This document shows positions 1 through 12,161 of a DNA stretch of 12,161 nt, piece by piece. How positions within the stretch are numbered: the first letter of the stretch is position 1; each line of letters opens with the position of its first letter. The notes beneath the pieces are model-generated. The model saw only the letters and a program-made list of their open reading frames with translations, had not been told where the DNA came from and ran no database searches. The stretch lies in IMG/VR virus record IMGVR_UViG_2675903313_000008. The stretch is one strand, 5' to 3'. The stretch comes from a virus. Lineage: Duplodnaviria; Heunggongvirae; Uroviricota; Caudoviricetes. The position numbers and the translations under genes were made by a program.

Positions 1-693
1 CTGCTGACCGCCAAACTGCTCCGCATCCACCTGCAGCCCCACAATCGCCGTGTTCGGGTAGCACTGTTTCACATCGATGATTTCGGTGTATGACGACCAG
101 AGCGTCTTATTCTGCAGCTGGTCCGGGGTGCTGTCCGCTGTCTCCCGGACCATCCGGATGTTAAAGGGCCGCTCAGGCAGATTCTCCAGAATCACCGACG
201 CCAGGTACTGTGAGGTGGTCTTGCCGTTAATGGTGACATCCTTTTCCGTCACCCAGTTACCGTTACGCTGCAACTGAATCAGCAGTCGGACAGAAGAGGG
301 ATTACGGTCGCCCTTTGAGGTGGTCTCCAACAGTGACTGCACCCCGAAGGTGACCCGCAGGCGGTCAATGTTCGCGGATGTAATGGTGCGCGTTACCGGC
401 TTTGCCTTCGTCACTTCCACGCCCAGTGCGGTTTCCGCCCCGGAGGACTCAAAGCCTTCAGGTGGTGTCTGCTCCTGCTCCCCGGCGCGCCAGACCGCGG
501 TCACACCATGTATCACAGGATTACCGTCCGTGTCCGTCAGCGGGGTTTTGTTCACCAGGATACTCTGCAGCCCCTTCACCGGACCTTCAATCGGCCCTTC
601 ACCAATGGCATCAATCACGCTCATCATCTGCGTGGACTTAAGATTGTCCTTTACCTCAACCGGCGTGTGCGCCCTGCCGCCACCTTTACCCAT
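1..693 (-). CDS. J: Tail tip / host specificity protein J, N-terminal 231 codons only; the rest lies beyond the window start
   Basis: Manual reverse translation from ATG (693-691) gives [38 protein letters not shown]..., which matches my recollection of the lambda gpJ N-terminus ([38 protein letters not shown]). An AGAGGA Shine-Dalgarno sits about 6 nt upstream on the minus strand. The frame stays open to position 1. Confidence 0.85.
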
Positions 694-826
694 AATGTTC
701 CTCTCAATTGGTATTATTAATCGCAGTGATAGGATATTGCACAGCTATTGCGCGATATCATCAGAACGCTGTTTGTTACCCTGTAACCAGCAAGCTCAGT
801 CTGTTAACGGAATTAATGAGGGTTTT

Positions 827-1354
827 ATGAAATGTAAAATCATTGCTGCCATTGCCATGCTGACAGCAGCATCATGCGGATACGCAGCAGAACAGGAAGT
901 CCCAATGAACCTTGTCAGTGCTGACGGAAAAGAAGTCAGCATTGGAAAAATAACCATTCAGGAGACCCCCTACGGTCTGCTGTTCACACCAGCCCTTCAC
1001 TCTCTGTCTGAAGGCATTCATGGTTTTCATGTGCACGAAAAAGGAAATTGCGCCCCGGCACTGAAAGACGGAAAACCGGTCGCAGCATTATCGGCTGGCG
1101 GTCACTTTGACCCGAAAAACACCGGCAAACATCTTGGCCCCTGGTCTCCGGATGGACACCTGGGCGACCTCCCTGCGCTGTTCGTGACGCATGACGGAAA
1201 AGCGAACTACCCGGTCCTGGCCCCGAGACTGAACTCATTAAAAGAGATTAAAGGGCGTTCTCTCATGCTTCATGCTGGCGGTGATAACCATCATGACCAT
1301 CCGGAGCCCCTGGGCGGTGGTGGTGCGAGAATGGCCTGCGGCATCATTCAATAA
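827..1354 (+). CDS. sodC: Periplasmic Cu,Zn superoxide dismutase (SodC family, phage-borne SodCI-like), 175 aa with N-terminal signal peptide
   Basis: The in-frame ATG at 827 is preceded by GAGGG 6 nt upstream. The translation [24 protein letters not shown]... carries the SodC hallmarks [30 protein letters not shown] and [12 protein letters not shown] (metal-binding His/Asp and the disulfide Cys pair). The ORF-track entry 320..1354 is the same frame extended upstream through the antisense of J. Confidence 0.9.
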
Positions 1355-1361
1355 TCAGTCA

Positions 1362-1390
1362 GGTAAGGGGCGGGCCCCTTACCTTTATTC
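1362..1390 (+). terminator. Intrinsic terminator downstream of sodC
   Basis: GGTAAGGGG (1362-1370) pairs with CCCCTTACC (1375-1383) around a 4-nt loop, followed by TTTATT. It starts 8 nt after the sodC stop. Confidence 0.6.
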
Positions 1391-1502
1391 CTCAGGACGA
1401 TAAATCCTTTCTCCCTGAAAAGAACGGCACATCCTCCCTCTCTGAGTTAATGTTTTTGTCGTGACATAAGAATAATTCCTTACACTCAATCTTCGTAACT
1501 CT

Positions 1503-1540
1503 CCCGCAGTTCCTGTCCGTGAGCACTGCGGGATTTTTTA
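1503..1540 (+). terminator. Second plus-strand intrinsic terminator, abutting the 3' end of I
   Basis: CCCGCAGT (1503-1510) pairs with ACTGCGGG (1525-1532) around a 14-nt loop, followed by ATTTTTTATGTTTT. The U-tract is only on the plus strand, so it is oriented for plus-strand transcripts. Confidence 0.5.
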
Positions 1541-1544
1541 TGTT

Positions 1545-2225
1545 TTATGCCTGCCGCCCGATAACCACCACCTTCCCGTCACCGCCTTCATCACGGGTAC
1601 TGATGTCCTGGGAGATTCGCCGGGAGCCAACCAGCATTTCACCGTAAGGCACCGGCATCGGGTTCCCCTGGGCAATCATGTTATCCAGCGAGGAAAAGTA
1701 CGTGTTCTGTCTGCCGTTATCCGTTGCGCGGTAATCCGGTGTTTTTGCCTTCGGGGCCAGCATCTGGGCCACACCGCCCAGAATCATGCTGGCTCCAAGT
1801 GAAAACAGCATCGTGGTGGCAGAAAAACCACCGGCTGCCAGGGCTGAACCCCATAACGCCATTGATGCCCCGGCAGTGAAGAAAGAGCCCACGATGGCTG
1901 CCGCCCCCAGCACAATCTGCAGTCCACCCTTTCCGGCCCCGGCCAGTCGCGGCACAATGTGGATGACCGTTCCCTCACCCAGCTGTTCGTGAAGACGGGC
2001 GTACACCGCCTCCGGTGCCGTGTCCTCACCGCGAATACGTATCTGGTACCAGCCTTCGTTCATCTGACGGCGGAATCCCGGCATCTGCATCGACAGGGCA
2101 CGAATGGCTTCCGCTGCCGTGTTCACATACAGGCTGAGGCGGCGGCCAAATCGTTGTAAATCCCCGTGAAGGCAGATACGTGCCAGTGGCGGTGACGCCA
2201 GGCTGAATGCGTTCGTCGTTGCCAT
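1545..2225 (-). CDS. I: Tail tip assembly protein I (226 aa)
   Basis: ORF translation MATTNAFSLASPPLARICLHGDLQRFGRR...GASMILGGVAQMLAPKAKTP...NTYFSSLDNM matches my recollection of lambda gpI. ATG at 2225-2223, TAA stop at 1547-1545. Confidence 0.85.
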   Translation of the reverse strand: MATTNAFSLASPPLARICLHGDLQRFGRRLSLYVNTAAEAIRALSMQMPGFRRQMNEGWYQIRIRGEDTAPEAVYARLHEQLGEGTVIHIVPRLAGAGKGGLQIVLGAAAIVGSFFTAGASMALWGSALAAGGFSATTMLFSLGASMILGGVAQMLAPKAKTPDYRATDNGRQNTYFSSLDNMIAQGNPMPVPYGEMLVGSRRISQDISTRDEGGDGKVVVIGRQA

Positions 2226-2866
2226 TTTTCGGAATACCTCTCCCGTTTACTCAGTTGTTCAGGCAGATGGTGAAGCAGCTCACCGTTGCCGCAGTAAATG
2301 GCGGCATGATTGGCCACCGATGCGCCAAAGCAGCACAGCAGGATATCGCCCGCCTGTGCAGAGGACAGGGGCACCCGGTAAAAGCCGGTGACCGCCATAT
2401 TGTCCAGGTAAAGGTTCTGACCGTTACGCCACCAGTCATCCTCACGCTCAAAATCCGGCATATCAATTCCCGCCAGATGGTATGCATCCCGGAACAGCGT
2501 GTAACAGTCCGTCACCCCGTGCTCAAAGCGCCGTCCTGTCAGATGTGGCACACAGCGGAATTTATGAATTTCCCCCCGGCAGACCAGCCACCAGGACAGT
2601 GCACTTTTTATCTGCAGCCGCCGGTCGGCCTCGCTCAGCCAGGGCAGACCACCGGGGTGGCTGTGGACCAGCGCCACAATCTCCCCCTGCATCTCTGCCC
2701 GCAGCCAGTCTTCCGGTGCAATACGAAAATACGCCTCCGGCTCTGCAGAGATATTCACACAAGGGATATACCGCTCCCCCTCCGGCGTTCTCACCACGAA
2801 GCCGCACGACTCCGCAGGCACACACCGCCGGGCATGCGCCAGAATCGCTGATTCAGTCTGTGTCAT
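2123..2866 (-). CDS. K: Tail tip assembly protein K, full length (247 aa); JAMM/MPN-like N-terminal half plus NlpC/P60-like C-terminal half
   Basis: From ATG at 2866-2864 the translation is MTQTESAILAHARRC...VHSHPGGLPWLSEADRR (JAMM-type HxH...S..D motif) ...DCYTLFRDAYHLAG...HAAIY (Cys/His of a C40-type peptidase). The track ORF 2123..3127 is the same frame with an 87-codon upstream extension that overlaps L. Confidence 0.85.
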   Translation of the reverse strand: MTQTESAILAHARRCVPAESCGFVVRTPEGERYIPCVNISAEPEAYFRIAPEDWLRAEMQGEIVALVHSHPGGLPWLSEADRRLQIKSALSWWLVCRGEIHKFRCVPHLTGRRFEHGVTDCYTLFRDAYHLAGIDMPDFEREDDWWRNGQNLYLDNMAVTGFYRVPLSSAQAGDILLCCFGASVANHAAIYCGNGELLHHLPEQLSKRERYSEKWQRRTHSAWRHRHWHVSAFTGIYNDLAAASACM

Positions 2867-2876
2867 AAACCGGGAT

Positions 2877-3575
2877 TTACTGCGAAAGTTTGTTAATGGA
2901 AAGGAAACCGCCAAAATTGCCGACATTCCTGCGCAGTTCACACCCGCGCATGCACTTGCTGCATCTGTCCTTACGGATATCCGTGGTGGGTTTATCGAAC
3001 TCATCCGCCACAGCCCCGCCCGTGTAACCACACTCATCAGAGCGGTAGGTCCACATACAGGTGTTCGCCAGCATGATGCGACCGGGAAACAGCGCCCCGT
3101 CCGTCTCGGTCGGTGTGGCCAGCACAAACGAGGCCGTCATGGCCGTCAGCTCTGATAACTGCTCCACCACCCAGCGGTCGCTCAGCTCCTGCTCCGGGTC
3201 CGCTTCCGGATTGCCCGCCACAAAATTCACCGCATCCAGAAAACGGGCATACACCCGGCGGCGGACCACCGTGGCCCCCACCAGGCTCTGCAAATCCTCC
3301 GCCATTCCGGTGACCAGACCAAACAGATTGGACACCGTCAGCGACGGGCGGGCACTGCTGCCCTTCCCGCTCATCTCAAAACCGCTGCCGTCAATCGGGT
3401 ATGCCTGATATTGCCGCCCCTGCCAGGTGACCGGCTCCCCTTTTTCATTCAGCTCATTACAGAAAAAATACCGCTCACCACCCTGTACCGTCAGGTCGAT
3501 TTCCCAGAGTACCACCCGCGGTGACTGCTCTGACTTAACCGACTCGTTCAGGCTTTCTTCGTGAATATCCTGCAT
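2877..3575 (-). CDS. L: Minor tail protein L, allele 1 (232 aa)
   Basis: MQDIHEESLNESVKSEQSPRVVLWEIDLT...NVGNFGGFLSINKLSQ matches my recollection of lambda gpL. ATG at 3575 overlaps the stop of the upstream M-like gene; TAA stop at 2879-2877. The C-terminus is Cys-rich. Confidence 0.85.
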   Translation of the reverse strand: MQDIHEESLNESVKSEQSPRVVLWEIDLTVQGGERYFFCNELNEKGEPVTWQGRQYQAYPIDGSGFEMSGKGSSARPSLTVSNLFGLVTGMAEDLQSLVGATVVRRRVYARFLDAVNFVAGNPEADPEQELSDRWVVEQLSELTAMTASFVLATPTETDGALFPGRIMLANTCMWTYRSDECGYTGGAVADEFDKPTTDIRKDRCSKCMRGCELRRNVGNFGGFLSINKLSQ

Positions 3576-3916
3576 CAGTTCACCACCTGCTCTATCGTGC
3601 AACTGAAATCACTGTACCGGGCATTATCCGTGACACTCCACTCACGGCACACAACCCTCACCGTCCGGTTATGTTTCGGCGGTCGCCACAAAAAGGCACG
3701 GTAACCACCATGCCACGATAAAAACTCTTCCAGCCAGCGCCGGGTTGACTCATCCGTCACCCGGAACACCGCCTGAAACGTCTTCAGTTGAGGATTCAGT
3801 CCTGTGGGGCGACGCTGTTCATAACCGTCACCAAACCGCACCCTCACCACCGACGGCTTCTCACTCACCTGCATCCCTTCACGCGGGACCAGATGCAGCG
3901 TTTTTATCTCAGCCAC
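3575..3916 (-). CDS. Minor tail protein M, divergent variant (113 aa, apparent GTG start), copy 1
   Basis: The translation ...SVVRVRFGDGYEQR...GGYRAFLWRPP...EQVVN aligns with the lambda gpM core (RFGDGYSQR...GGWKSFLWTPP...EQVVN) but is clearly diverged. Its stop overlaps the L start. Confidence 0.7.
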   Translation of the reverse strand: MAEIKTLHLVPREGMQVSEKPSVVRVRFGDGYEQRRPTGLNPQLKTFQAVFRVTDESTRRWLEEFLSWHGGYRAFLWRPPKHNRTVRVVCREWSVTDNARYSDFSCTIEQVVN

Positions 3917-4003
3917 TCAGCATTCCTCCGTCACGTCGCATGGACAGCATCACCGCCTGCACCCGCTGGTCAATCAGCTGCACAAGACTGCCTGCCGCCT
4001 CCG
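3909..4003 (-). CDS. 3' end of a tape-measure (H-like) gene, truncated by the N-run; last ~30 codons only
   Basis: The sequence is identical to 5425-5519, where the same frame is the C-terminus (...RRDGGMLSG*) of a long H-like ORF. It stops at 3909-3911 and is cut off at 4003 by the N-run. Confidence 0.5.
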
Positions 4004-4014
4004 NNNNNNNNNNN
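4004..4014. other. Run of 11 N: assembly/scaffold gap
   Basis: Literal n characters in the sequence. The left flank is H-type sequence and the right flank restarts inside K at ACAGCGTGTAACAG. Confidence 0.95.
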
Positions 4015-4387
4015 ACAGCGTGTAACAGTCCGTCACCCCGTGCTCAAAGCGCCGTCCTGTCAGATGTGGCACACAGCGGAATTTATGAATTTCCCCCCGG
4101 CAGACCAGCCACCAGGACAGTGCACTTTTTATCTGCAGCCGCCGGTCGGCCTCGCTCAGCCAGGGCAGACCACCGGGGTGGCTGTGGACCAGCGCCACAA
4201 TCTCCCCCTGCATCTCTGCCCGCAGCCAGTCTTCCGGTGCAATACGAAAATACGCCTCCGGCTCTGCAGAGATATTCACACAAGGGATATACCGCTCCCC
4301 CTCCGGCGTTCTCACCACGAAGCCGCACGACTCCGCAGGCACACACCGCCGGGCATGCGCCAGAATCGCTGATTCTGTCTGTGTCAT
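4015..4387 (-). CDS. K: Tail assembly protein K, 5' fragment (first ~124 codons), truncated at the gap; copy 2
   Basis: ATG at 4387-4385. The translation MTQTESAIL...HGVTDCYTL is identical to the copy-1 K N-terminus and the reading frame runs into the Ns. Confidence 0.7.
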
Positions 4388-4392
4388 TGGAT

Positions 4393-5091
4393 TTACTGCG
4401 AAAGTTTATTAATGGAAAGGAAACCGCCAAAATTAGCCACCATGCCGCGCATCTCACACCCGCGCATGCACTTGCTGCATCTGTCCTTACGGATATCCGT
4501 GGTGGGGGTGTCGAACTCATCCGCCACCGCAGGACCGTTATACCCGCATTCATCTCCCCGGTAATCCCACATACAGGTGTTCGCCAGCATGATGCGACCA
4601 GGAAACAGCGCTCCGTCCGTCTCCGTCGGTGTTGCCAGCACAAACAAGGCTGTCATGGCCGTCAGCTCTGACATCTGCTCCACCACCCAGCGGTCGCTCA
4701 GCTCCTGCTCCGGGTCCGCTTCCGGATTGCCCGCCACAAAATTCACCGCATCCAGAAAACGGGCATACACCCGGCGGCGGACCACCGTGGCCCCCACCAG
4801 GCTCTGCAAATCCTCCGCCATTCCGGTGACCAGACCAAACAGATTGGACACCGTCAGCGACGGGCGGGCACTGCTGCCCTTCCCGCTCATCTCAAAACCG
4901 CTGCCGTCAATCGGGTATGCCTGATATTGCCGCCCCTGCCAGGTGACCGGCTCCCCTTTTTCATTCAGCTCATTACAGAAAAAATACCGCTCACCACCCT
5001 GTACCGTCAGGTCGATTTCCCAGAGTACCACCCGCGGTGACTGCTCTGACTTAACCGACTCGTTCAGGCTTTCTTCGTGAATATCCTGCAT
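4393..5091 (-). CDS. L: Minor tail protein L, allele 2 (232 aa)
   Basis: Same architecture as allele 1. It differs in the C-terminal Cys-containing region (CMWDYRGDECGYNGPAVADEFDTPTT...CEMRGMVANFGG versus CMWTYRSDECGYTGGAVADEFDKPTT...CELRRNVGNFGG). Confidence 0.8.
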   Translation of the reverse strand: MQDIHEESLNESVKSEQSPRVVLWEIDLTVQGGERYFFCNELNEKGEPVTWQGRQYQAYPIDGSGFEMSGKGSSARPSLTVSNLFGLVTGMAEDLQSLVGATVVRRRVYARFLDAVNFVAGNPEADPEQELSDRWVVEQMSELTAMTALFVLATPTETDGALFPGRIMLANTCMWDYRGDECGYNGPAVADEFDTPTTDIRKDRCSKCMRGCEMRGMVANFGGFLSINKLSQ

Positions 5092-5432
5092 CAGTTCACC
5101 ACCTGCTCTATCGTGCAACTGAAATCACTGTACCGGGCATTATCCGTGACACTCCACTCACGGCACACAACCCTCACCGTCCGGTTATGTTTCGGCGGTC
5201 GCCACAAAAAGGCACGGTAACCACCATGCCACGATAAAAACTCTTCCAGCCAGCGCCGGGTTGACTCATCCGTCACCCGGAACACCGCCTGAAACGTCTT
5301 CAGTTGAGGATTCAGTCCTGTGGGGCGACGCTGTTCATAACCGTCACCAAACCGCACCCTCACCACCGACGGCTTCTCACTCACCTGCATCCCTTCACGC
5401 GGGACCAGATGCAGCGTTTTTATCTCAGCCAC
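5091..5432 (-). CDS. Minor tail protein M, divergent variant, copy 2 (113 aa)
   Basis: Protein identical to the 3575..3916 product. Confidence 0.7.
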   Translation of the reverse strand: MAEIKTLHLVPREGMQVSEKPSVVRVRFGDGYEQRRPTGLNPQLKTFQAVFRVTDESTRRWLEEFLSWHGGYRAFLWRPPKHNRTVRVVCREWSVTDNARYSDFSCTIEQVVN

Positions 5433-6670
5433 TCAGCATTCCTCCGTCACGTCGCATGGACAGCATCACCGCCTGCACCCGCTGGTCAATCAGCTGCACA
5501 AGACTGCCTGCCGCCTCCGGCCCTATCTGGCCATTAGTCCCGTCATTCTGAATGGCGATGTGGTAGACCGGGGAATACACCAGACCCGCACTACCGTTCA
5601 TACTACCCACGGCGCGTACGCCCAGCGAGCCATCCGCCGCCCGGGTCAGGGGCATAATGGCTTCAGGTCCGGCTTCCCCCATCAGCCCGGCCCCTTTTGC
5701 AAAGGCAAAGTACGTGGGCGTGTCCACAATGCTGTTGCTGTACGCGCTCAGGTTTGCCGAGGTATACACGCCGCCTTTTGCATTGACCACCGCACCGCCC
5801 AGCCAGTCACCAATGCTGCCAAGAAATCCTCCCGCACCGGACATACCGTTTGCCGCCGTCTTGATCCCGTTGACAATCGCGGCATTCATAAGGACTTTTG
5901 AGATTTCCTGCAGTACGGATGAGGCCCAGTTGCGCCATTCCACTTTGTTTCCGTTCAGCATCTCCGTGATGTTATTCACCAGTCCTGAAATCCCCTCAGT
6001 CGCCAGCTGTGCTGCCTGAGAGGCGTAATCGGACGCATTATCCACCCAGTTACTGAGCCCCTCCTGCAAGCCTTTCTGCCAGTCCGCACGCTGCGCATCC
6101 GATTCGGCATAAAAAGTTTCCTGGTCTTTAAGGCGTTCACTCAGATACTGCGCGTTCTGTGCCAGAGCCTGTCTGTAAAAATCCTCACTGATATCCCCGG
6201 TCTGATACTGAGACTGAAGGTCCGCATCCTTCTGGCGGAAGCTGTCGCGGATCTGCTGCAACTCCCGCATGCGTTCCCTGGCTCGTTCCCCCTGCCCGTA
6301 CCCCAGCAGTTCAGATTCATTTGATGCACGCGCAGCCACATTATCATTCTTCAGGGTCTCTTCCCGGTACCGCAACTGTTCCCGGATTTTTTGCTGGTCA
6401 ATCAGGGCCGCGTTACGCAGCAGTTCCTGCTTCTGCATCTCCGTCAGGGTTTTCAGTTCGCCCTGCGCAGTCTGGTACTTCAGCTTCGCCAGCTCTGTAT
6501 TCTGACCCGCCAGTGCCAGTTGCTCTTTCTGCTGCTTCAGTAGCCGGGAAAAACTGTCTTCCGCTTTTTCCGTCTCTGATTTTCCACCCCGGGATTTAGG
6601 TTTGTTCGCCTCGTTATTACGCCAGGCTTCCAGAGCATTACTGATATAACGCTGTCTCGCCTCCTGATAC
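5425..6670 (-). CDS. Tape measure protein, H-like variant, C-terminal ~415 codons; 5' end cut off at the single N
   Basis: The translation is rich in coiled-coil Q/E/K/R/L repeats (LKQQKEQLALAGQNTELAKLKYQ...) and ends with a Gly-rich tail ...HIAIQNDGTNGQIGPEA...MRRDGGMLSG, parallel to the lambda-like H C-terminus in this window (...NNHVVIQNDGTNGQAGPQ...MRDGGVFSGGRR). The track ORF 5425..7044 joins it through the N to the K fragment and is not a real protein. Confidence 0.7.
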
Positions 6671-6671
6671 N
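6671..6671. other. Single N marking a second join between unrelated sequences
   Basis: Left of it is the interior of the H-like gene; right of it the sequence restarts at exactly the same K-internal position (ACAGCGTGTAACAG) as after the first N-run. Confidence 0.85.
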
Positions 6672-7044
6672 ACAGCGTGTAACAGTCCGTCACCCCGTGC
6701 TCAAAGCGCCGTCCTGTCAGATGTGGCACACAGCGGAATTTATGAATTTCCCCCCGGCAGACCAGCCACCAGGACAGTGCACTTTTTATCTGCAGCCGCC
6801 GGTCGGCCTCGCTCAGCCAGGGCAGACCACCGGGGTGGCTGTGGACCAGCGCCACAATCTCCCCCTGCATCTCTGCCCGCAGCCAGTCTTCCGGTGCAAT
6901 ACGAAAATACGCCTCCGGCTCTGCAGAGATATTCACACAAGGGATATACCGCTCCCCCTCCGGCGTTCTCACCACGAAGCCGCACGACTCCGCAGGCACA
7001 CACCGCCGGGCATGCGCCAGAATCGCTGATTCTGTCTGTGTCAT
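6672..7044 (-). CDS. K: Tail assembly protein K, 5' fragment (first ~124 codons), copy 3
   Basis: ATG at 7044-7042; same MTQTESAIL...DCYTL translation, truncated at the N. Confidence 0.7.
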
Positions 7045-7740
7045 TGGATTTACTGCGAAAGTTTATTAATGGAAAGGAAACCGCCAAAATTAGCCACCAT
7101 GCCGCGCATCTCACACCCGCGCATGCACTTGCTGCATCTGTCCTTACGGATATCCGTGGTGGGGGTGTCGAACTCATCCGCCACCGCAGGACCGTTATAC
7201 CCGCATTCATCTCCCCGGTAATCCCACATACAGGTGTTCGCCAGCATGATGCGACCAGGAAACAGCGCTCCGTCCGTCTCCGTCGGTGTTGCCAGCACAA
7301 ACAAGGCTGTCATGGCCGTCAGCTCTGACATCTGCTCCACCACCCAGCGGTCGCTCAGCTCCTGCTCCGGGTCCGCTTCCGGATTGCCCGCCACAAAATT
7401 CACCGCATCCAGAAAACGGGCATACACCCGGCGGCGGACCACCGTGGCCCCCACCAGGCTCTGCAGGTCCTCCGCCATTCCGGTGACCAGACCGAACAGA
7501 TTCGACACCGTCAGCGACGGGCGGGCACTGCTGCCCTTCCCGTTCATCTCAAAGCCACTGCCGTCAATCGGGTATGCCTGATATTGCCGCCCCTGCCAGG
7601 TGACCGCCTCCCCTTTTTCATTCAGCTCATTGCAGAAAAAATACCGCTCACCACCCTGTACCGTCAGGTCGATTTCCCAGAGTACCACCCGCGGTGACTG
7701 CTCTGATTTAACCGACTCGTTCAGACTTTCTTCGTGAATA
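6672..7740 (-). repeat. Repeat unit copy 3 (K 5' half + L), diverging toward the lambda-like M
   Basis: 6672 to about 7450 is nearly identical to 4015 to about 4790. Substitutions accumulate toward the 5' end of L, and beyond 7748 the sequence is unrelated to copies 1 and 2. Confidence 0.8.
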
Positions 7741-7748
7741 TCCTGCAT
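7050..7748 (-). CDS. L: Minor tail protein L, allele 3 (232 aa)
   Basis: MQDIHEESLNES...; closest to allele 2 but with scattered substitutions (e.g. EAVTWQ, FEMNGKG). ATG at 7748 overlaps the M stop (ATGA). Confidence 0.85.
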   Translation of the reverse strand: MQDIHEESLNESVKSEQSPRVVLWEIDLTVQGGERYFFCNELNEKGEAVTWQGRQYQAYPIDGSGFEMNGKGSSARPSLTVSNLFGLVTGMAEDLQSLVGATVVRRRVYARFLDAVNFVAGNPEADPEQELSDRWVVEQMSELTAMTALFVLATPTETDGALFPGRIMLANTCMWDYRGDECGYNGPAVADEFDTPTTDIRKDRCSKCMRGCEMRGMVANFGGFLSINKLSQ

Positions 7749-8077
7749 CAGTTCACCACCTGCTTAAACTCGGCACTGAATTCAACCCGCAGCATGCGAA
7801 CCCGTGATGACCAGGCGGCACTGGTCACCTTTATCTGCCGGTATGCATAAGGAGGTGTCCACAGAAACGCCTTCCAGCCACCGTGCTCTGCCAGGAATGC
7901 CTCCAGATGTCGGGCCTCCTCCCGGGTCACGGAAAGCGTCACACGGTATGTTTTCAGGTCAGCATTCAGCCCCGCCGCCATACGCTGCGAATACCCGTCA
8001 CCAAAACGCACTTCACGCACCGATGGCTGCGAGTTCACCTCCATATCCGGCTTCACTTTCCAGCGAAATGTTTTCAT
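7748..8077 (-). CDS. M: Minor tail protein M, lambda-like (109 aa)
   Basis: MKTFRWKVKPDMEVNSQPSVREVRFGDGYSQR...FLWTPPYAYRQIKV...RVEFSAEFKQVVN is near-identical to lambda gpM as I recall it. ATG at 8077 overlaps the H stop. Confidence 0.9.
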   Translation of the reverse strand: MKTFRWKVKPDMEVNSQPSVREVRFGDGYSQRMAAGLNADLKTYRVTLSVTREEARHLEAFLAEHGGWKAFLWTPPYAYRQIKVTSAAWSSRVRMLRVEFSAEFKQVVN

Positions 8078-10653
8078 CGCCTGCCTCCGGAAAATACGCC
8101 GCCATCACGCATCTGCGCCTGAATCTCATCCTGCGCCCCCTTGCGGGCCATGTCATACACCGCCTTCATCAGCTGCGGCCCCGCCTGTCCGTTGGTGCCG
8201 TCGTTCTGAATCACCACGTGATTGTTCTGATTAAAATTAATGCCTTCCGTCCGCCGCATCTGCGCCGGACTTCCGGCACCGCCCACATAACCACCTTCCG
8301 CATAGCCCCGCATCAGGCGGTACAGGTTGCCGACGCCAATCCGGCTGGTTGCCTCCTTCGTGAAAACAAACTCCCCGCGATGAACAATCCCCGCAGGCTC
8401 ATATTTGCCGCCCGTCCCCGTAAATCCTCCGGTCGCGAAATGGAAGTTCGCCGCCGCAGCCTGAATGGCCGTCCCCGTGGAGGCAGACGCCCCACCACCG
8501 AAAGCACCACCCATGGCGCTGCCAATACTCCCGACAATCCCCACCATGGCCTGCTTCAGAAAAATCTCTGTCAGCATGGAGAGCACAGAACGGGTGAAAC
8601 CACGCCAGCTCTGTTCGCTGCCGGTCAGCATCGCTGCCATATTCTGTGCAATACCGTCAAAGGTCTGCGTGGCCACGCTTTTAACCTGCGAAAAACTGTC
8701 CGTCACACTTTCCGCCCACTCGCCCCAGCCGGACTTCAGCCCGGCCATCCAGCTGCCACGAAGCTGGTCCTCCGCAGACCAGGTGTTCTTCAGTGCAGAT
8801 GTGGCCTTCGCCAGCGCATCCGGATTATCACCGTACACGTCACGAAGGCGCTGCGATTCCGACTCCCGCTGTGCCTGACGGTCCGTCAGCCCCCGGGCTT
8901 TTGCGCTGATTGCAGCCTGCTTCGCACTCTGCTGCTGTTCAAACCGCACAGCCTGATTTGCCAGCTCATTCAGCCGTTTCTGGTATTCAACCTTGTCACC
9001 CAGGTCAGCCAGCTGGCGTTTGTACTCCAGCGTCTCTTGCTCATGGGCCAGCAGGGATTTCTCCTGTGCAGACAGCTGGCGACGTTGCGCCGCCTCCTCC
9101 AGTACCGCGAACTGACTCTCCGCCTTCCACAAATCCCGGCGCTGCTGGCTGATTTTCTCATTCGCTCCGCTGTGCTTCTCCAGCGTCCGGAGCTCGGTTT
9201 CAAGCGCCAGCAGGGCAGCATGCGCCTGGTCTTCCTGACGCTCACCGGCTGACACTTTGACTCCTGACGACTTCGGCTTTTTCAGCGTCGATTCATAATC
9301 CTTTTTCGCCGCCGCCATCAGCGTGTTGTAATCCGCCTGCAGGATTTTCCCGTCTTTCAGGGCCTTATTCAGCTCTTCCTGCCGGTTAGTATATTTCTCC
9401 AGCGGCGTCAGCAGACGCTCATACGCCTTCTGCGCCTCTCCGGTATACTTCAGCCGTGATGCGTCCCGTTCGGCCCGGTCCCTGGTAGCCAGTTCACCGG
9501 CTTTTTCCATATCTGACTGCAGCGTGGCCGCTGCCAGCCCCAGACGGGCATTTTCCCGGTCATTCCATGCGCCCTGAAGGTTGGCCCGGAAAGAGGCGGT
9601 TTTTCCCCGGCGCTGGCTCCGGCTCTGGTACCACTGCCATTTTTTATCCGCCTCATCAAATGCCTTCTGTGCACTGGCGAGCATATCCGCTGAGGACTCA
9701 GGACGACCGATATCCAGAATGGCATCCCACATCGATTTGAATGCCTTCCCTGTTTTATCCGCCCAGGTCTCCAGTGTTCCCATGTTTTCTTTCAGGCGAC
9801 GGGTCTGCTCATCAAAGCCTTTCGTGGCGATATCGTTCGCCGCCTGCAATGCCCCGGCCTCGTCTCCGGAACGCTGCAGCTGTGCAACATACGCAATCTG
9901 CTCTGCCGTCACGTTACGGAACTGGCGCGCCATCGCCATCAGTCCCGACGTCGGGTCGGTGGTCAGTTTTCCGAAAGCCTCTGCAACCTTGTCCACCTCC
10001 ACACCGGATGCAGAAGCAAAACGCGCGACACTCTGGTTGATGGCATCAAACTGTTCACCACCACGCACACCGGCATTCACCAGGGCTGCCAGTGACTCAC
10101 TCGCCTGGTTAAACGTCAGCCCTGCGGCCTGTCCGGCTCTGGAGAGCGTCAGCATGCGATCGGCAGTCAGTCCGGACTGATTACCGGAAAGAACCAGGGT
10201 TTTATTAAACGCTGAAAGCGTGGAATCCCCCTGGTACCAGGCGTACGCCAGCGCACCTGTCGCCACCGCCAGCGAGGTGACCCCGACCATCGGCAGGGTG
10301 ATCGCACCGGCAAGTCCCCTGAACATGGGGATCATCCCGCCGAAGGAGTCCTTCACCTGACCGCCCTGTTGCAGCAGGATCAGCCAGGGATTCTGACCAC
10401 CGGCAAGCTGCGTGGCGATATCCGTAAACTGTGCGGGCAGGGTTCGCATGGCCGCTTTATACTGCCCGACGGAAATCCCGGCTTTTTGTGCAGCCAGCGC
10501 CTGGCGGCTCAGGCCCTGTTCAACAGCACTGGCGGTTTTTCTGGCGTCAGTCTCCAGTCCGGAAAAATGACGCCTTACCCGGCTCATCTGCTCATCGAAA
10601 CGGACCGCATCCAGACTCAGGTCAATAACAAGATCACCAACCGGCTGGGACAT
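8074..10653 (-). CDS. H: Tail tape measure protein H, lambda-like (859 aa)
   Basis: MSQPVGDLVIDLSLDAVRFDEQMSRVRRHFSG...QYKAAMRTLPAQFTDIATQLAGGQNPWLILLQQGGQVKDSFGG... matches lambda gpH along its length. A strong GGAGGTG Shine-Dalgarno precedes the ATG at 10653. Confidence 0.9.
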   Translation of the reverse strand: MSQPVGDLVIDLSLDAVRFDEQMSRVRRHFSGLETDARKTASAVEQGLSRQALAAQKAGISVGQYKAAMRTLPAQFTDIATQLAGGQNPWLILLQQGGQVKDSFGGMIPMFRGLAGAITLPMVGVTSLAVATGALAYAWYQGDSTLSAFNKTLVLSGNQSGLTADRMLTLSRAGQAAGLTFNQASESLAALVNAGVRGGEQFDAINQSVARFASASGVEVDKVAEAFGKLTTDPTSGLMAMARQFRNVTAEQIAYVAQLQRSGDEAGALQAANDIATKGFDEQTRRLKENMGTLETWADKTGKAFKSMWDAILDIGRPESSADMLASAQKAFDEADKKWQWYQSRSQRRGKTASFRANLQGAWNDRENARLGLAAATLQSDMEKAGELATRDRAERDASRLKYTGEAQKAYERLLTPLEKYTNRQEELNKALKDGKILQADYNTLMAAAKKDYESTLKKPKSSGVKVSAGERQEDQAHAALLALETELRTLEKHSGANEKISQQRRDLWKAESQFAVLEEAAQRRQLSAQEKSLLAHEQETLEYKRQLADLGDKVEYQKRLNELANQAVRFEQQQSAKQAAISAKARGLTDRQAQRESESQRLRDVYGDNPDALAKATSALKNTWSAEDQLRGSWMAGLKSGWGEWAESVTDSFSQVKSVATQTFDGIAQNMAAMLTGSEQSWRGFTRSVLSMLTEIFLKQAMVGIVGSIGSAMGGAFGGGASASTGTAIQAAAANFHFATGGFTGTGGKYEPAGIVHRGEFVFTKEATSRIGVGNLYRLMRGYAEGGYVGGAGSPAQMRRTEGINFNQNNHVVIQNDGTNGQAGPQLMKAVYDMARKGAQDEIQAQMRDGGVFSGGRR

Positions 10654-11098
10654 ATCTCACACCTCCGGAAATCCCCGCTGAAGCCATCATTAATGCGACA
10701 TCATCCTCGCTGACATCCGCCACATCCGCAGACGATAAAATCTCACGCCCTCCGTCCCCACCAAACCGTACGCCTCCGGCAAGTCCTGCCGCTTTCTGCA
10801 TCAGCATTTTTTCCTCATCCGGCATCTCCGTCTGCGCTTCCTCACGCCGGGGGGCAAGCAGACTGAAATCAGAGGGATGCATATCCGGATCGCAAAAAAA
10901 CAGGCTGAGTACGGCGTACGTCAGCCCGGAAAAATGCATATCCAGCTGGGTATCGTGAAAATAATGCGTACGGTAAAAATGTCGCCAGTCGGCATATTCG
11001 GTGGATGTCATCCCGGCAAGCATGGCGCGCCAGTCAGGCCTCCCCATCTCACGCGCCAGTCTGAGGGCAAAATTCAGCTCGCCGTCGAAGACTTTCCC
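10634..11098 (-). CDS. T: T reading frame of the tail assembly chaperone, expressed as a G-T fusion by -1 ribosomal frameshift
   Basis: The frame translates ...MGRPDWRAMLAGMTSTEYADWRHFYRTHYFHD...AGGVRYVPAGW, which matches lambda gpT. It is in the -1 frame relative to G and reachable from the slippery heptamer at 11092-11098. TGA stop at 10636-10634. Confidence 0.8.
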   Translation of the reverse strand, partial: GKVFDGELNFALRLAREMGRPDWRAMLAGMTSTEYADWRHFYRTHYFHDTQLDMHFSGLTYAVLSLFFCDPDMHPSDFSLLAPRREEAQTEMPDEEKMLMQKAAGLAGGVRFGGDGGREILSSADVADVSEDDVALMMASAGISGGVRYVPAGW

Positions 11099-11505
11099 GC
11101 AGAAAAATCATCATCAGTCAGCGCGTTATTTTTCGCCACTTCGGTGCTGTCAGTATCCGCATGAACAGCCCCGCTCATCCCGGACAGACGCAACACCACA
11201 TCTTCCGCCCGTGCAATGGCATCCGCAGGCCAGGTGGTGAGCACCTCCTGTTCGATCTGCATCACAGCCTCATTCATTGACGGTGATGCCGTTTTCTGCG
11301 GATGGTTATGCCACAGGGACATCGCCACCAGAAACGCGCCGGTTCTGACGAGATCTTCCACGCTTACCTGCAGGTTGCCGCTGGATTCTGCCTGTTCTGC
11401 ACGCCGTTTCAGGAGGGCAAGATGCTCAATACGCTGCAGCGCAGACAATTCGGAAAGCGTGACGGACACACCGTTATATTCAAATTGTTCTGTTTTCAGA
11501 AACAT
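11074..11505 (-). CDS. G: Tail assembly chaperone G (143 aa)
   Basis: MFLKTEQFEYNGVSVTLSELSALQRIEHLALLKRRAEQAES...TGAFLVAMSLWHNHPQKT... matches lambda gpG. A GGAGG Shine-Dalgarno precedes the ATG at 11505. Confidence 0.9.
   Translation of the reverse strand: MFLKTEQFEYNGVSVTLSELSALQRIEHLALLKRRAEQAESSGNLQVSVEDLVRTGAFLVAMSLWHNHPQKTASPSMNEAVMQIEQEVLTTWPADAIARAEDVVLRLSGMSGAVHADTDSTEVAKNNALTDDDFSAGKSSTAS
11092..11098 (-). promoter_or_regulatory. Programmed -1 frameshift slippery heptamer G GGA AAG
   Basis: The plus strand reads CTTTCCC, so the minus strand reads GGGAAAG in G frame G|GGA|AAG, 5 codons before the G stop. After a -1 slip the next codon begins at 11092 in the T frame (11092-11047 is a multiple of 3). 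Confidence 0.8.
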
Positions 11506-11518
11506 GTATTACCTCCGT

Positions 11519-12161
11519 TTACCCTGCAGCGCCCGCTTCAGTAACGGTGACTTCAGCCACTGCGGCGAACTGACCATTTCCGCTCACCACAGGGATCTGC
11601 ACCTTACCTGTCGCCACGCCGTTTACCGTAATTGTCATATCTTTCACACTAATGGTGGCTTTCGACGGATCGGCGGAAACCGCTCTGAACGTCTTGTCGG
11701 TTGCACTTTCCGGCTCAAAAGAAACCGTCAGGGTGGTTGTTTTCCCTTTTGCCACCGTACCGGATGTCGGCGTCACCTTAATCGCAGTGACCGGCGTAAT
11801 TTTGCTGCGTTCTTCCGCTACAGAAGGTTTGCCCACGTTGGTCACTTTCACCGTGCGGGTGATCACTTCTTTCGCCGTCACGGCCTTACCGATACTGCTG
11901 ACCCAGCCACGAAACACATCCACCGTGCCGTTCGGAAAACGGATTTTATAGGCCCGCACATCCCCGCTTTCAAACCAGCCTATAAGCCCTTTCTGACCTT
12001 CTTCTCCCGGTTTCCAGGCCAGCGTAAAACTGGTATCTCCTGCAGACTTCTGCCCCTGCCCGGTCGCGGTCCAGTCCGCGTCTTCATCATCCAGGTAGTT
12101 ATCATCGTAGGGTTCTGCCGTCATCTCGCCCGGCGTCAGATCCTTCACCTTAGCCAGTCGC
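11519..12161 (-). CDS. V: Major tail protein V, C-terminal ~213 codons; N-terminus beyond the window end
   Basis: ...[49 protein letters not shown]...[39 protein letters not shown]... plus a C-terminal Ig-like segment matches lambda gpV from about residue 38 onward. The frame is open to 12161; the track ORF start at 12148 is an internal GTG. Confidence 0.9.

Follow-up and report, generated by a model that had tools for sequence, protein, structure and literature searches.

Tail-gene modules in a draft Escherichia coli contig are very probably pieces of several lambdoid prophages joined across N gaps

Gene content of the window

The stretch of DNA analysed here (the window, 12,161 nt) is the entire contig CYBZ01000052.1 of GCA_001277615.1, a short-read draft E. 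coli assembly. Two runs of N, at 4004-4014 and 6671, lie precisely at the borders between the supposed copies of a tail-gene set and divide the window into block A (1-4003), block B (4015-6670) and block C (6672-12161), whose features are listed in Table 1. Each gene can be identified from matches in RefSeq, in phages and in Pfam. These N joints were overlooked in the first-pass annotation, which had described three tandem copies in one locus, a description that was not upheld. Blocks B and C have their first nucleotide at the identical position within gene K, and a 539-aa ORF (5425-7044) reads open through the single N at 6671.

Table 1. Features of the window, with the evidence for each
Feature	Position	Strand	Evidence or remark
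J, 5' part, truncated by contig end	1-693	-	aligns with gpJ start in NZ_CP148374.1
Cargo gene sodC, between I and J, encoding a Cu,Zn superoxide dismutase	827-1354	+	ORF translation; sodC annotated at equivalent place in relatives; PF00080 on record
Tail assembly gene I, longest ORF	1545-2225	-	PF06805 Lambda_tail_I; relatives' annotation; RefSeq-type start near 2126
Gene K, complete, block A	2123-2866	-	Prok-JAB and NlpC/P60 domains; 744 nt, the RefSeq C40 peptidase length
Gene L, block A allele, 232 aa	2877-3575	-	PF05100, E=3e-92; 77.6% identity to lambda L
M variant, 113 aa, GTG start, first occurrence	3575-3916	-	PF05939; protein identical to WP_000807964.1
H variant, final 95 nt, truncated by N run	3909-4003	-	identical to 5425-5519
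Scaffold gap, joint 1, 11 N	4004-4014	.	adjacency in 0/5,426 complete E. coli genomes
K 5' fragment, about 124 codons, truncated at N run, block B	4015-4387	-	identical to 2494-2854 and 6672-7032
Gene L, block B allele, 232 aa	4393-5091	-	present on three draft contigs
M variant, 113 aa, second occurrence	5091-5432	-	PF05939
H variant, C-terminal 414 codons, HK97-like tape measure, truncated at single N	5425-6670	-	PF09718; 51% identity to HK97 gp16
Scaffold joint 2, single N	6671-6671	.	without adjacent match in complete genomes
K 5' fragment, truncated at N, block C	6672-7044	-	K intact onward in NZ_CP148374.1 and one sister draft
Gene L, block C allele	7050-7748	-	PF05100; 11 differences from block B, all in 7466-7725
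Lambda-type M, 109 aa	7748-8077	-	80.7% identity to lambda M; PF05939
Mosaic joint, last M codons (QVVN, stop), common to both lineages	7749-7764	-	B/C DNA similarity stops at 7765
Lambda-type tape measure H, 859 aa	8074-10653	-	78.9% identity to lambda H; PF06791 and PF09718
Tail chaperone genes G (11074-11505) and T (10634-11047)	10634-11505	-	slippery heptamer, GGGAAAG, spans 11092-11098
Major tail gene V, 5' end truncated by contig end	11519-12161	-	RefSeq homologue is 753 nt

Two lineages of M and H

The M variant had been reported as an intact 113-aa gene with a GTG start, and this was borne out in both places, 3575-3916 and 5091-5432, which have the same nucleotide sequence. The C-terminus described for the H variant was likewise found, in an open frame (5425-6670) ending in ...HIAIQNDGTNGQIGPEA...RRDGGMLSG, and the proteins encoded at 7748-8077 and 8074-10653, described as the M and H of a third copy, are lambda-like, with the identities to lambda given in Table 1. 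At the protein level, the M variant and the lambda-type M share 45% identity (E=4e-31), and the C-terminal parts of the H variant and of the window's lambda-type H share 27%. Both M proteins are full-length on PF05939 (Phage_min_tail), from profile positions 1-2 to 108, with scores of 101.9 bits for the variant and 126.4 bits for the lambda type (cut-off 39), while PF09718 was matched by both H proteins and PF06791 additionally by the lambda-type H. The M ORFs of 113 and 109 aa are both intact and positioned between H and L; the H-variant and M-variant ORFs overlap by 8 nt, and M and L overlap by 1 nt in both lineages.

As only fragments of the H variant are present in the window, the M and H variants might be read as decaying pseudogene copies of the lambda-type genes. 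We consider this extremely improbable. The H fragments stop at the N gaps, at 4004 and 6671, without terminating mutations, the lambda-type H being complete with 859 aa; in the complete genome NZ_CP148374.1 the H variant is full-length, at about 1080 aa, and a full H of this length is annotated in relatives. The M variant, in turn, is intact, identical to a RefSeq protein and complete on its profile, and DNA with 96-97% identity to the variant M-H region occurs in 91 phage records, among them the Stx phages 1717, 2851 and BP-4795. Protein identities of 45% and 27% without frameshifts indicate an old, functional divergence of the variant M and H, and the concern raised with the original description, that they might be frameshifted or degraded lambda-like genes, does not apply: they are divergent homologues. 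Two distinct M and H lineages beside nearly identical L genes, proposed there as modular mosaicism, were upheld. The lineages are genuine, with an intact M, and are already well known from E. coli prophages, both being annotated in thousands of genomes.

The mosaic joint at the M/L border

The switch between the lineages had been placed inside the 5' part of L (7450-7748), and the alignment of blocks B and C did not bear this out. Both blocks are identical over 4015-4808 and 6672-7465, and over 7466-7725 they differ at 11 scattered sites and no more. Altogether, identity amounts to 98.99% over 1,093 nt, after which the sequences are unalignable from position 7765, 17 nt upstream of the L start codon. 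The final five codons of M contain the real switch, at 7764/7765. Such an abrupt change from near-identity to unalignable sequence at the M/L gene border is what characterizes a lambdoid mosaic joint, and the switch is textbook lambdoid mosaicism, a long-known property of lambdoid prophages.

The joints between the blocks

Both N joints were searched for among 5,426 complete E. coli genomes. The whole 600-nt probe spanning joint 1 was found in none of them, and for joint 2 no true adjacent match was obtained; the lone match with 100% coverage, in NZ_CP050998.1, is an unrelated H-L deletion remnant in which the probe halves lie 660 nt apart and was discarded. Over 5,490 nt, block C shows 2 mismatches (99.96% identity) to an ordinary single-copy prophage of strain Z1323HEC0108 (NZ_CP148374.1), in which K runs on into I-sodC-J. 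The best match of block B (98.3%) is in the same genome, 3.6 Mb from the block C match, and belongs to an HK97-like prophage whose H is complete at 1080 aa. Two sister drafts, CYGP01000052.1 and CYDL01000091.1, contain the same modules with 99.4-100% identity, joined at other points and always by a single N, and there the block B- and C-type K genes continue uninterrupted past the break seen in the window. The first SNP that separates the prophage copies is found 10 nt past the K break, which fits a contig ending at a branch of the assembly graph. Position 2483 and sites within 2855-3158 and 7466-7725 are examples of SNPs specific to single copies.

Since the joints are absent elsewhere, block C is single-copy in its complete relative and the sister drafts are joined differently, we interpret the copies as scaffolding artefacts. 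N at the joints, borders at repeats or branches and a lack of reproduction between assemblies, all expected of such artefacts, were found here; junctions of determined bases present in independent assemblies, expected of a genuine tandem duplication, were not. A real triplication, in which illegitimate recombination or slipped replication produced tandem partial tail modules with K'::H' fusions in one prophage, would account for the deposited sequence reading through, with the 539-aa ORF open over the single N, and compound prophages are on record in STEC. It is nevertheless very unlikely, given that both junctions contain N characters and occur in none of the complete genomes, that the two truncated K copies stop at the same base so close to the copy-distinguishing SNP, that a complete genome nearly identical to block C has one normal module and that the same pieces are chained at other points in the sister drafts.

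If just two tail modules were real, block B would be a chimeric path through the assembly graph, with the block C prophage supplying the left half and the block A prophage the right. In agreement with this, B equals C over 4015-4808 and equals A over 4675-5519, and the 134-nt overlap is identical in A, B and C, as would result from a mis-resolved repeat node. However, the same arrangement is present in two independent sister drafts, one of which runs on into a K/I allele unlike the block A and C type, and the block B-type L is combined with the variant M and H in the complete genome at 98.3% identity. Because the sister drafts and the complete genome have the same combination, we regard the chimera as unlikely. 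The left part of block A was also considered as the continuation of block C, and this was rejected, as it resembles the block C-type prophage of Z1323HEC0108 closely without matching it fully: I and J differ. With these differences, block A is best treated as a separate prophage.

Origin of the window

The window is very probably a scaffold built from short reads in the draft genome of an atypical-EPEC E. coli, with contigs of several co-resident lambdoid prophages chained across two N gaps. CYBZ01 corresponds to strain 504005_aEPEC from India (PMC11893012), which, going by its name and country, would belong to the aEPEC set of Ingle et al. (ENA ERP001141), described as Velvet-assembled (PMC5343136). 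Homologous prophage content in STEC is poorly handled by short reads (PMC10925052), and we propose that the assembler chained the contigs of co-resident prophages head to tail across N gaps. Block C (6672-12161) is the V-G-T-H-M-L-K stretch of a lambda-type prophage, and blocks A (1-4003) and B (4015-6670) very probably come from prophages whose tail shaft and tape measure are those of Stx phages of the 1717/2851/BP-4795 type, which has an HK97-like H plus its own 113-aa M. All three blocks carry almost identical lambda-like L-K(-I-J) tip genes, probably because lambdoid prophages swap modules by homologous recombination.

Compound (tandem) prophages do occur in STEC (PMC10925052), so that two of these prophages may lie physically close to each other. 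There is a very small chance that at least one N joint is a real adjacency, with truncated tail modules of the two lineages adjoining after recombination between prophages in a compound prophage of 504005_aEPEC; such a joint would capture an intermediate in the exchange of lambda-type and 1717-type tail modules.

The exchange point between the lineages lies at the M/L boundary, within the last five M codons, where the ribosome-binding region of L is also situated. L-K-I-J may act as a swappable tip module, while M would move together with its own H and tube genes. In the lambda tail, gpM forms a hexamer above the gpL/gpJ hub and the C-terminus of gpH touches gpI (PMC11101478). The M proteins of the window may similarly sit as a hexameric ring where the tail tube meets the L/J hub, a position that would explain this joint movement and suggests co-adaptation of M with H and the tube.

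These results call for caution, as false tandem gene arrays can arise in scaffolded short-read drafts of prophage-rich E. coli and chimeric proteins can enter public databases; the K::H fusion of 539 aa annotated on the record of this window is one of them. In a tidy example of lambdoid modular exchange, two M/H lineages are attached to one shared L-K-I-J tip module, which they meet at the M/L border. Since both lineages were already known and the copies are joined prophage pieces, the finding is an ordinary one, and nothing is added to what was known from comparisons of lambda, HK97 and the Stx phages.

Comparison with known systems

Block C has the gene order of lambda (NC_001416; V-G-T-H-M-L-K-I-J), the same overlapping stop and start codons and the same GGGAAAG slippery site between G and T. 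Its proteins are 80.7% (M), 78.9% (H) and about 77% (L) identical to those of lambda, and H has 859 aa versus 853 aa in the phage. Unlike lambda, relatives carry sodC as cargo between I and J.

For the variant module, the closest systems are the long-tailed Stx-converting phages 1717, 2851, BP-4795 and Stx1a/Stx2c, together with the corresponding E. coli prophages. In the phages the similarity of M and the C-terminal part of H extends over all 1,580 nt, and 1,244 complete E. coli genomes cover at least 80% of block B. Among relatives in which the variant M stands beside an HK97-like head/tail module, some share the J-sodC-I-K-L arrangement of block A. There is no substantive difference between these phages and the window, which has fragments of H only.

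The H variant is 51% identical to gp16 of HK97 (NC_002167) over the C-terminal 420 aa, and the neighbouring head and tail genes in relatives bear HK97-family names. The HK97 M, however, is just 34% identical to the M variant, its L is just 36% identical to the window's L, and over roughly its last 45 residues the H variant is closer to lambda H than to gp16. The weak identity of M and L together with the lambda-like end of H indicates that the variant module is a hybrid and not an HK97 module.

Finally, the window resembles short-read assemblies of prophage-rich E. coli in which repeats have led to scaffolding errors, with the same N-marked joints at repeat borders, near-identical prophage pieces and a chaining that depends on the isolate.

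Layout of the window

In the ORF map of the window, all phage genes but sodC are encoded on the minus strand and follow the gene order of the lambda tail, and 12 N characters divide the window into three blocks, as listed in the table of features. In block C, V is cut by the contig end. The K nucleotide sequence at the start of block B is exactly that at the start of block C (ACAGCGTGTAACAG...). A sodC cargo is annotated at the equivalent I/J position in many E. coli prophages, and the lambda G-T programmed frameshift heptamer is also conserved. The two long plus-strand ORFs look like by-products of composition and not genes; in relatives, nothing is annotated at their positions.

Features of the window (minus strand unless marked +)
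Feature	Coordinates	Description
Block A	1-4003	J 5' part, sodC (+), I, complete K, L, 113-aa M variant, final 95 nt of H variant
Joint 1	4004-4014	11 N
Block B	4015-6670	K first 124 codons, L, M variant as in block A, H variant C-terminal 414 codons
Joint 2	6671	single N
Block C	6672-12161	K fragment as in block B, L, 109-aa M, 859-aa H, T, G, V
Long ORF (+)	320-1354	344 aa, upstream of and in frame with sodC
sodC (+)	827-1354	Cu,Zn superoxide dismutase with signal peptide, between I and J, strand opposite to tail genes
A/B patch	2855-3158 (A), 4376-4674 (B)	~300 nt
Variant M-H DNA	5091-6670	
H variant, last ~50 codons	5425-5575	extreme C-terminus ..IQNDGTNGQ..RRDGGMLSG
Gene called across joint 2	5425-7044	539 aa, K N-terminus fused in frame to H-variant C-terminus
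L start codon, block C	7746-7748	
M stop, block C	7748-7750	
Lambda-type M and H	7748-10653	
Long ORF (+)	7804-9252	482 aa, antisense to H
Heptamer GGGAAAG	11092-11098	close to G 3' end

The three-copy arrangement

The first-pass annotation had read the window as one locus carrying three copies of the tail genes. This arrangement is very probably an assembly artefact, and N characters stand at both borders between copies. An exact match at the protein level identifies the window as the entire contig CYBZ01000052.1 of GCA_001277615.1; the strain behind CYBZ01 is 504005_aEPEC, from human faeces in India (PMC11893012). Judging by its name and country, it probably forms part of the aEPEC collection of Ingle et al., for which Illumina sequencing and Velvet assembly are described (PMC5343136). 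In STEC-like genomes, homologous prophage content is described as beyond what short reads can resolve (PMC10925052).

Complete E. coli genomes were searched with two probes, one comprising 300 nt from either side of joint 1 and one across joint 2. None of 5,426 genomes contained the entire joint 1 probe; each of its halves was present in more than 4,300. The lone apparent full match to the joint 2 probe, NZ_CP050998.1, was rejected, as its halves lie 660 nt apart in a separate H-L deletion remnant. There (locus L002, 5378-8258), a natural deletion has brought the 3' end of L up against a tape measure gene that lacks its C-terminal part; this is a decayed prophage tail module with no relation to the joints of the window.

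The blocks themselves have ordinary counterparts. Compared with 963142-968631 of NZ_CP148374.1, the complete genome of E. coli Z1323HEC0108, block C shows 2 mismatches in 5,490 nt (99.96% identity); this region is a single-copy lambda-type prophage where K runs on into I, sodC and J. Block B has its best match (98.3%) elsewhere in that genome, at 4.586 Mb, in a prophage with head and tail genes of the HK97 family, a 1080-aa H and the 113-aa M. Block A matches, at 97.7%, prophages ordered J-sodC-I-K-L-M variant-H variant.

In two sister drafts, the modules of the window recur at 99.4-100% identity but are chained differently, with a single N each time. In CYGP01000052.1, the K of block C type and that of block B type both continue intact into I, and the joints are I|H-variant and I|L. 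The corresponding piece of block B type in CYDL01000091.1 extends 10 nt further into K before the N, which is followed by L. The first SNP separating block B type K from the A/C type is at window-equivalent position 2483, 10 nt past the break (2493/2494), as expected where branching of the assembly graph brings a contig to its end.

No Pfam matches are recorded for the 539-aa gene that is called across joint 2 in the public record. A sister draft (locus L008, 3654-4559) encodes a 301-aa I::H-variant fusion with PF06805 and PF09718. Both are artefactual chimeric proteins, which are now present in protein databases.

Two M/H lineages

The variant M, GTG start and quoted motifs included, was found as first described, and so were the C-terminus of the H variant and the lambda-like pair of M and H. 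PF05939 is matched over its full length by both M proteins, PF09718 by both H proteins and PF06791 additionally by complete H. WP_000807964.1, as annotated in two complete genomes, is identical to the M variant. The variants are divergent homologues and not degraded copies of the lambda-like genes; the M variant is intact in the window, and the H variant, present here as fragments, is a complete 1080-aa protein in NZ_CP148374.1.

Protein comparisons of the tail genes
Protein	Compared with	Protein identity
M variant	lambda-type M	45% (E=4e-31)
M variant	lambda M	45%
M variant	HK97 M	34%
Lambda-type M	lambda M	80.7%
H variant C-part	lambda-type H	27% over 250 aa
H variant	HK97 gp16	51% over 420 aa
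Lambda-type H	lambda H	78.9%
L, all three alleles	lambda L	about 77%
L	HK97 L	36%

Over its full length, the variant M-H DNA was found at 96-97% identity in 91 phage records, including Stx2 phage 1717, phage 2851, BP-4795 and many Stx1a and Stx2c phages; the lambda-type M-H DNA matched 146 phage records, Lambdavirus among them, at up to 94.6%. At least 80% of block B was covered in 1,244 complete E. coli genomes and at least 80% of block C in 3,674; in these searches, a single genome had as many as 14-15 related places.

The switch between lineages

Blocks B and C are identical over 4015-4808 and 6672-7465, show 11 scattered differences over 7466-7725 and have no DNA similarity left from 7765 on. 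Given the positions of the L start codon and the M stop, the shared DNA begins within the five final M codons (..QVVN, stop); the ribosome-binding region of L lies in these codons too. The breakpoint had been placed in the 5' part of L (7450-7748), but this stretch is merely mildly divergent (about 4%), and the real switch is at the M/L gene border. Of the original interpretation, the two distinct M/H lineages stand, while the arrangement and the breakpoint do not.

Blocks A and B differ in 46 alignment columns clustered in the A/B patch, which takes in the spacer between K and L, with a 5-nt indel, as well as the 3'-terminal third of L, and are otherwise identical. The patch shows about 85% identity, with 100% on either flank, and is a sub-genic mosaic patch within L; the L portion encodes a cysteine-rich C-terminal domain.

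In lambda, a ring of six gpM separates the tail tube from the pseudo-hexameric gpL/gpJ hub, and the C-terminus of gpH is a coiled coil touching gpI inside the tip (PMC11101478). M would have to match both the L/J hub beneath it and, on its upper side, its own tube and tape measure, and a joint right at the M/L border could allow the shaft set V-G-T-H-M to be paired with a tip set, L-K-I-J, that is shared. Homology for repeated exchange may come from near-identical L-K sequences in co-resident prophages.

Comparison with HK97 and lambda

The biology of these tail lineages is already known. Juhala et al. reportedly compared HK97 and lambda in 2000. That lambdoid phages are mosaic in structure and that their tail genes are transferred together is established (PMC9836094). 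The variant module is a hybrid of an HK97-like tape measure, its own M and a lambda-like L-K-I-J. Within the 80 residues preceding the last 50 of the H variant, a 38-aa stretch is 84% identical to HK97 gp16, with a local score of 158 against HK97 versus 44 against lambda-type H. The last ~45 residues have a much higher score with lambda-type H than with gp16 (103 versus 36). This lambda-like C-terminus reflects either an old joint within H or co-evolution with the lambda-like tip.
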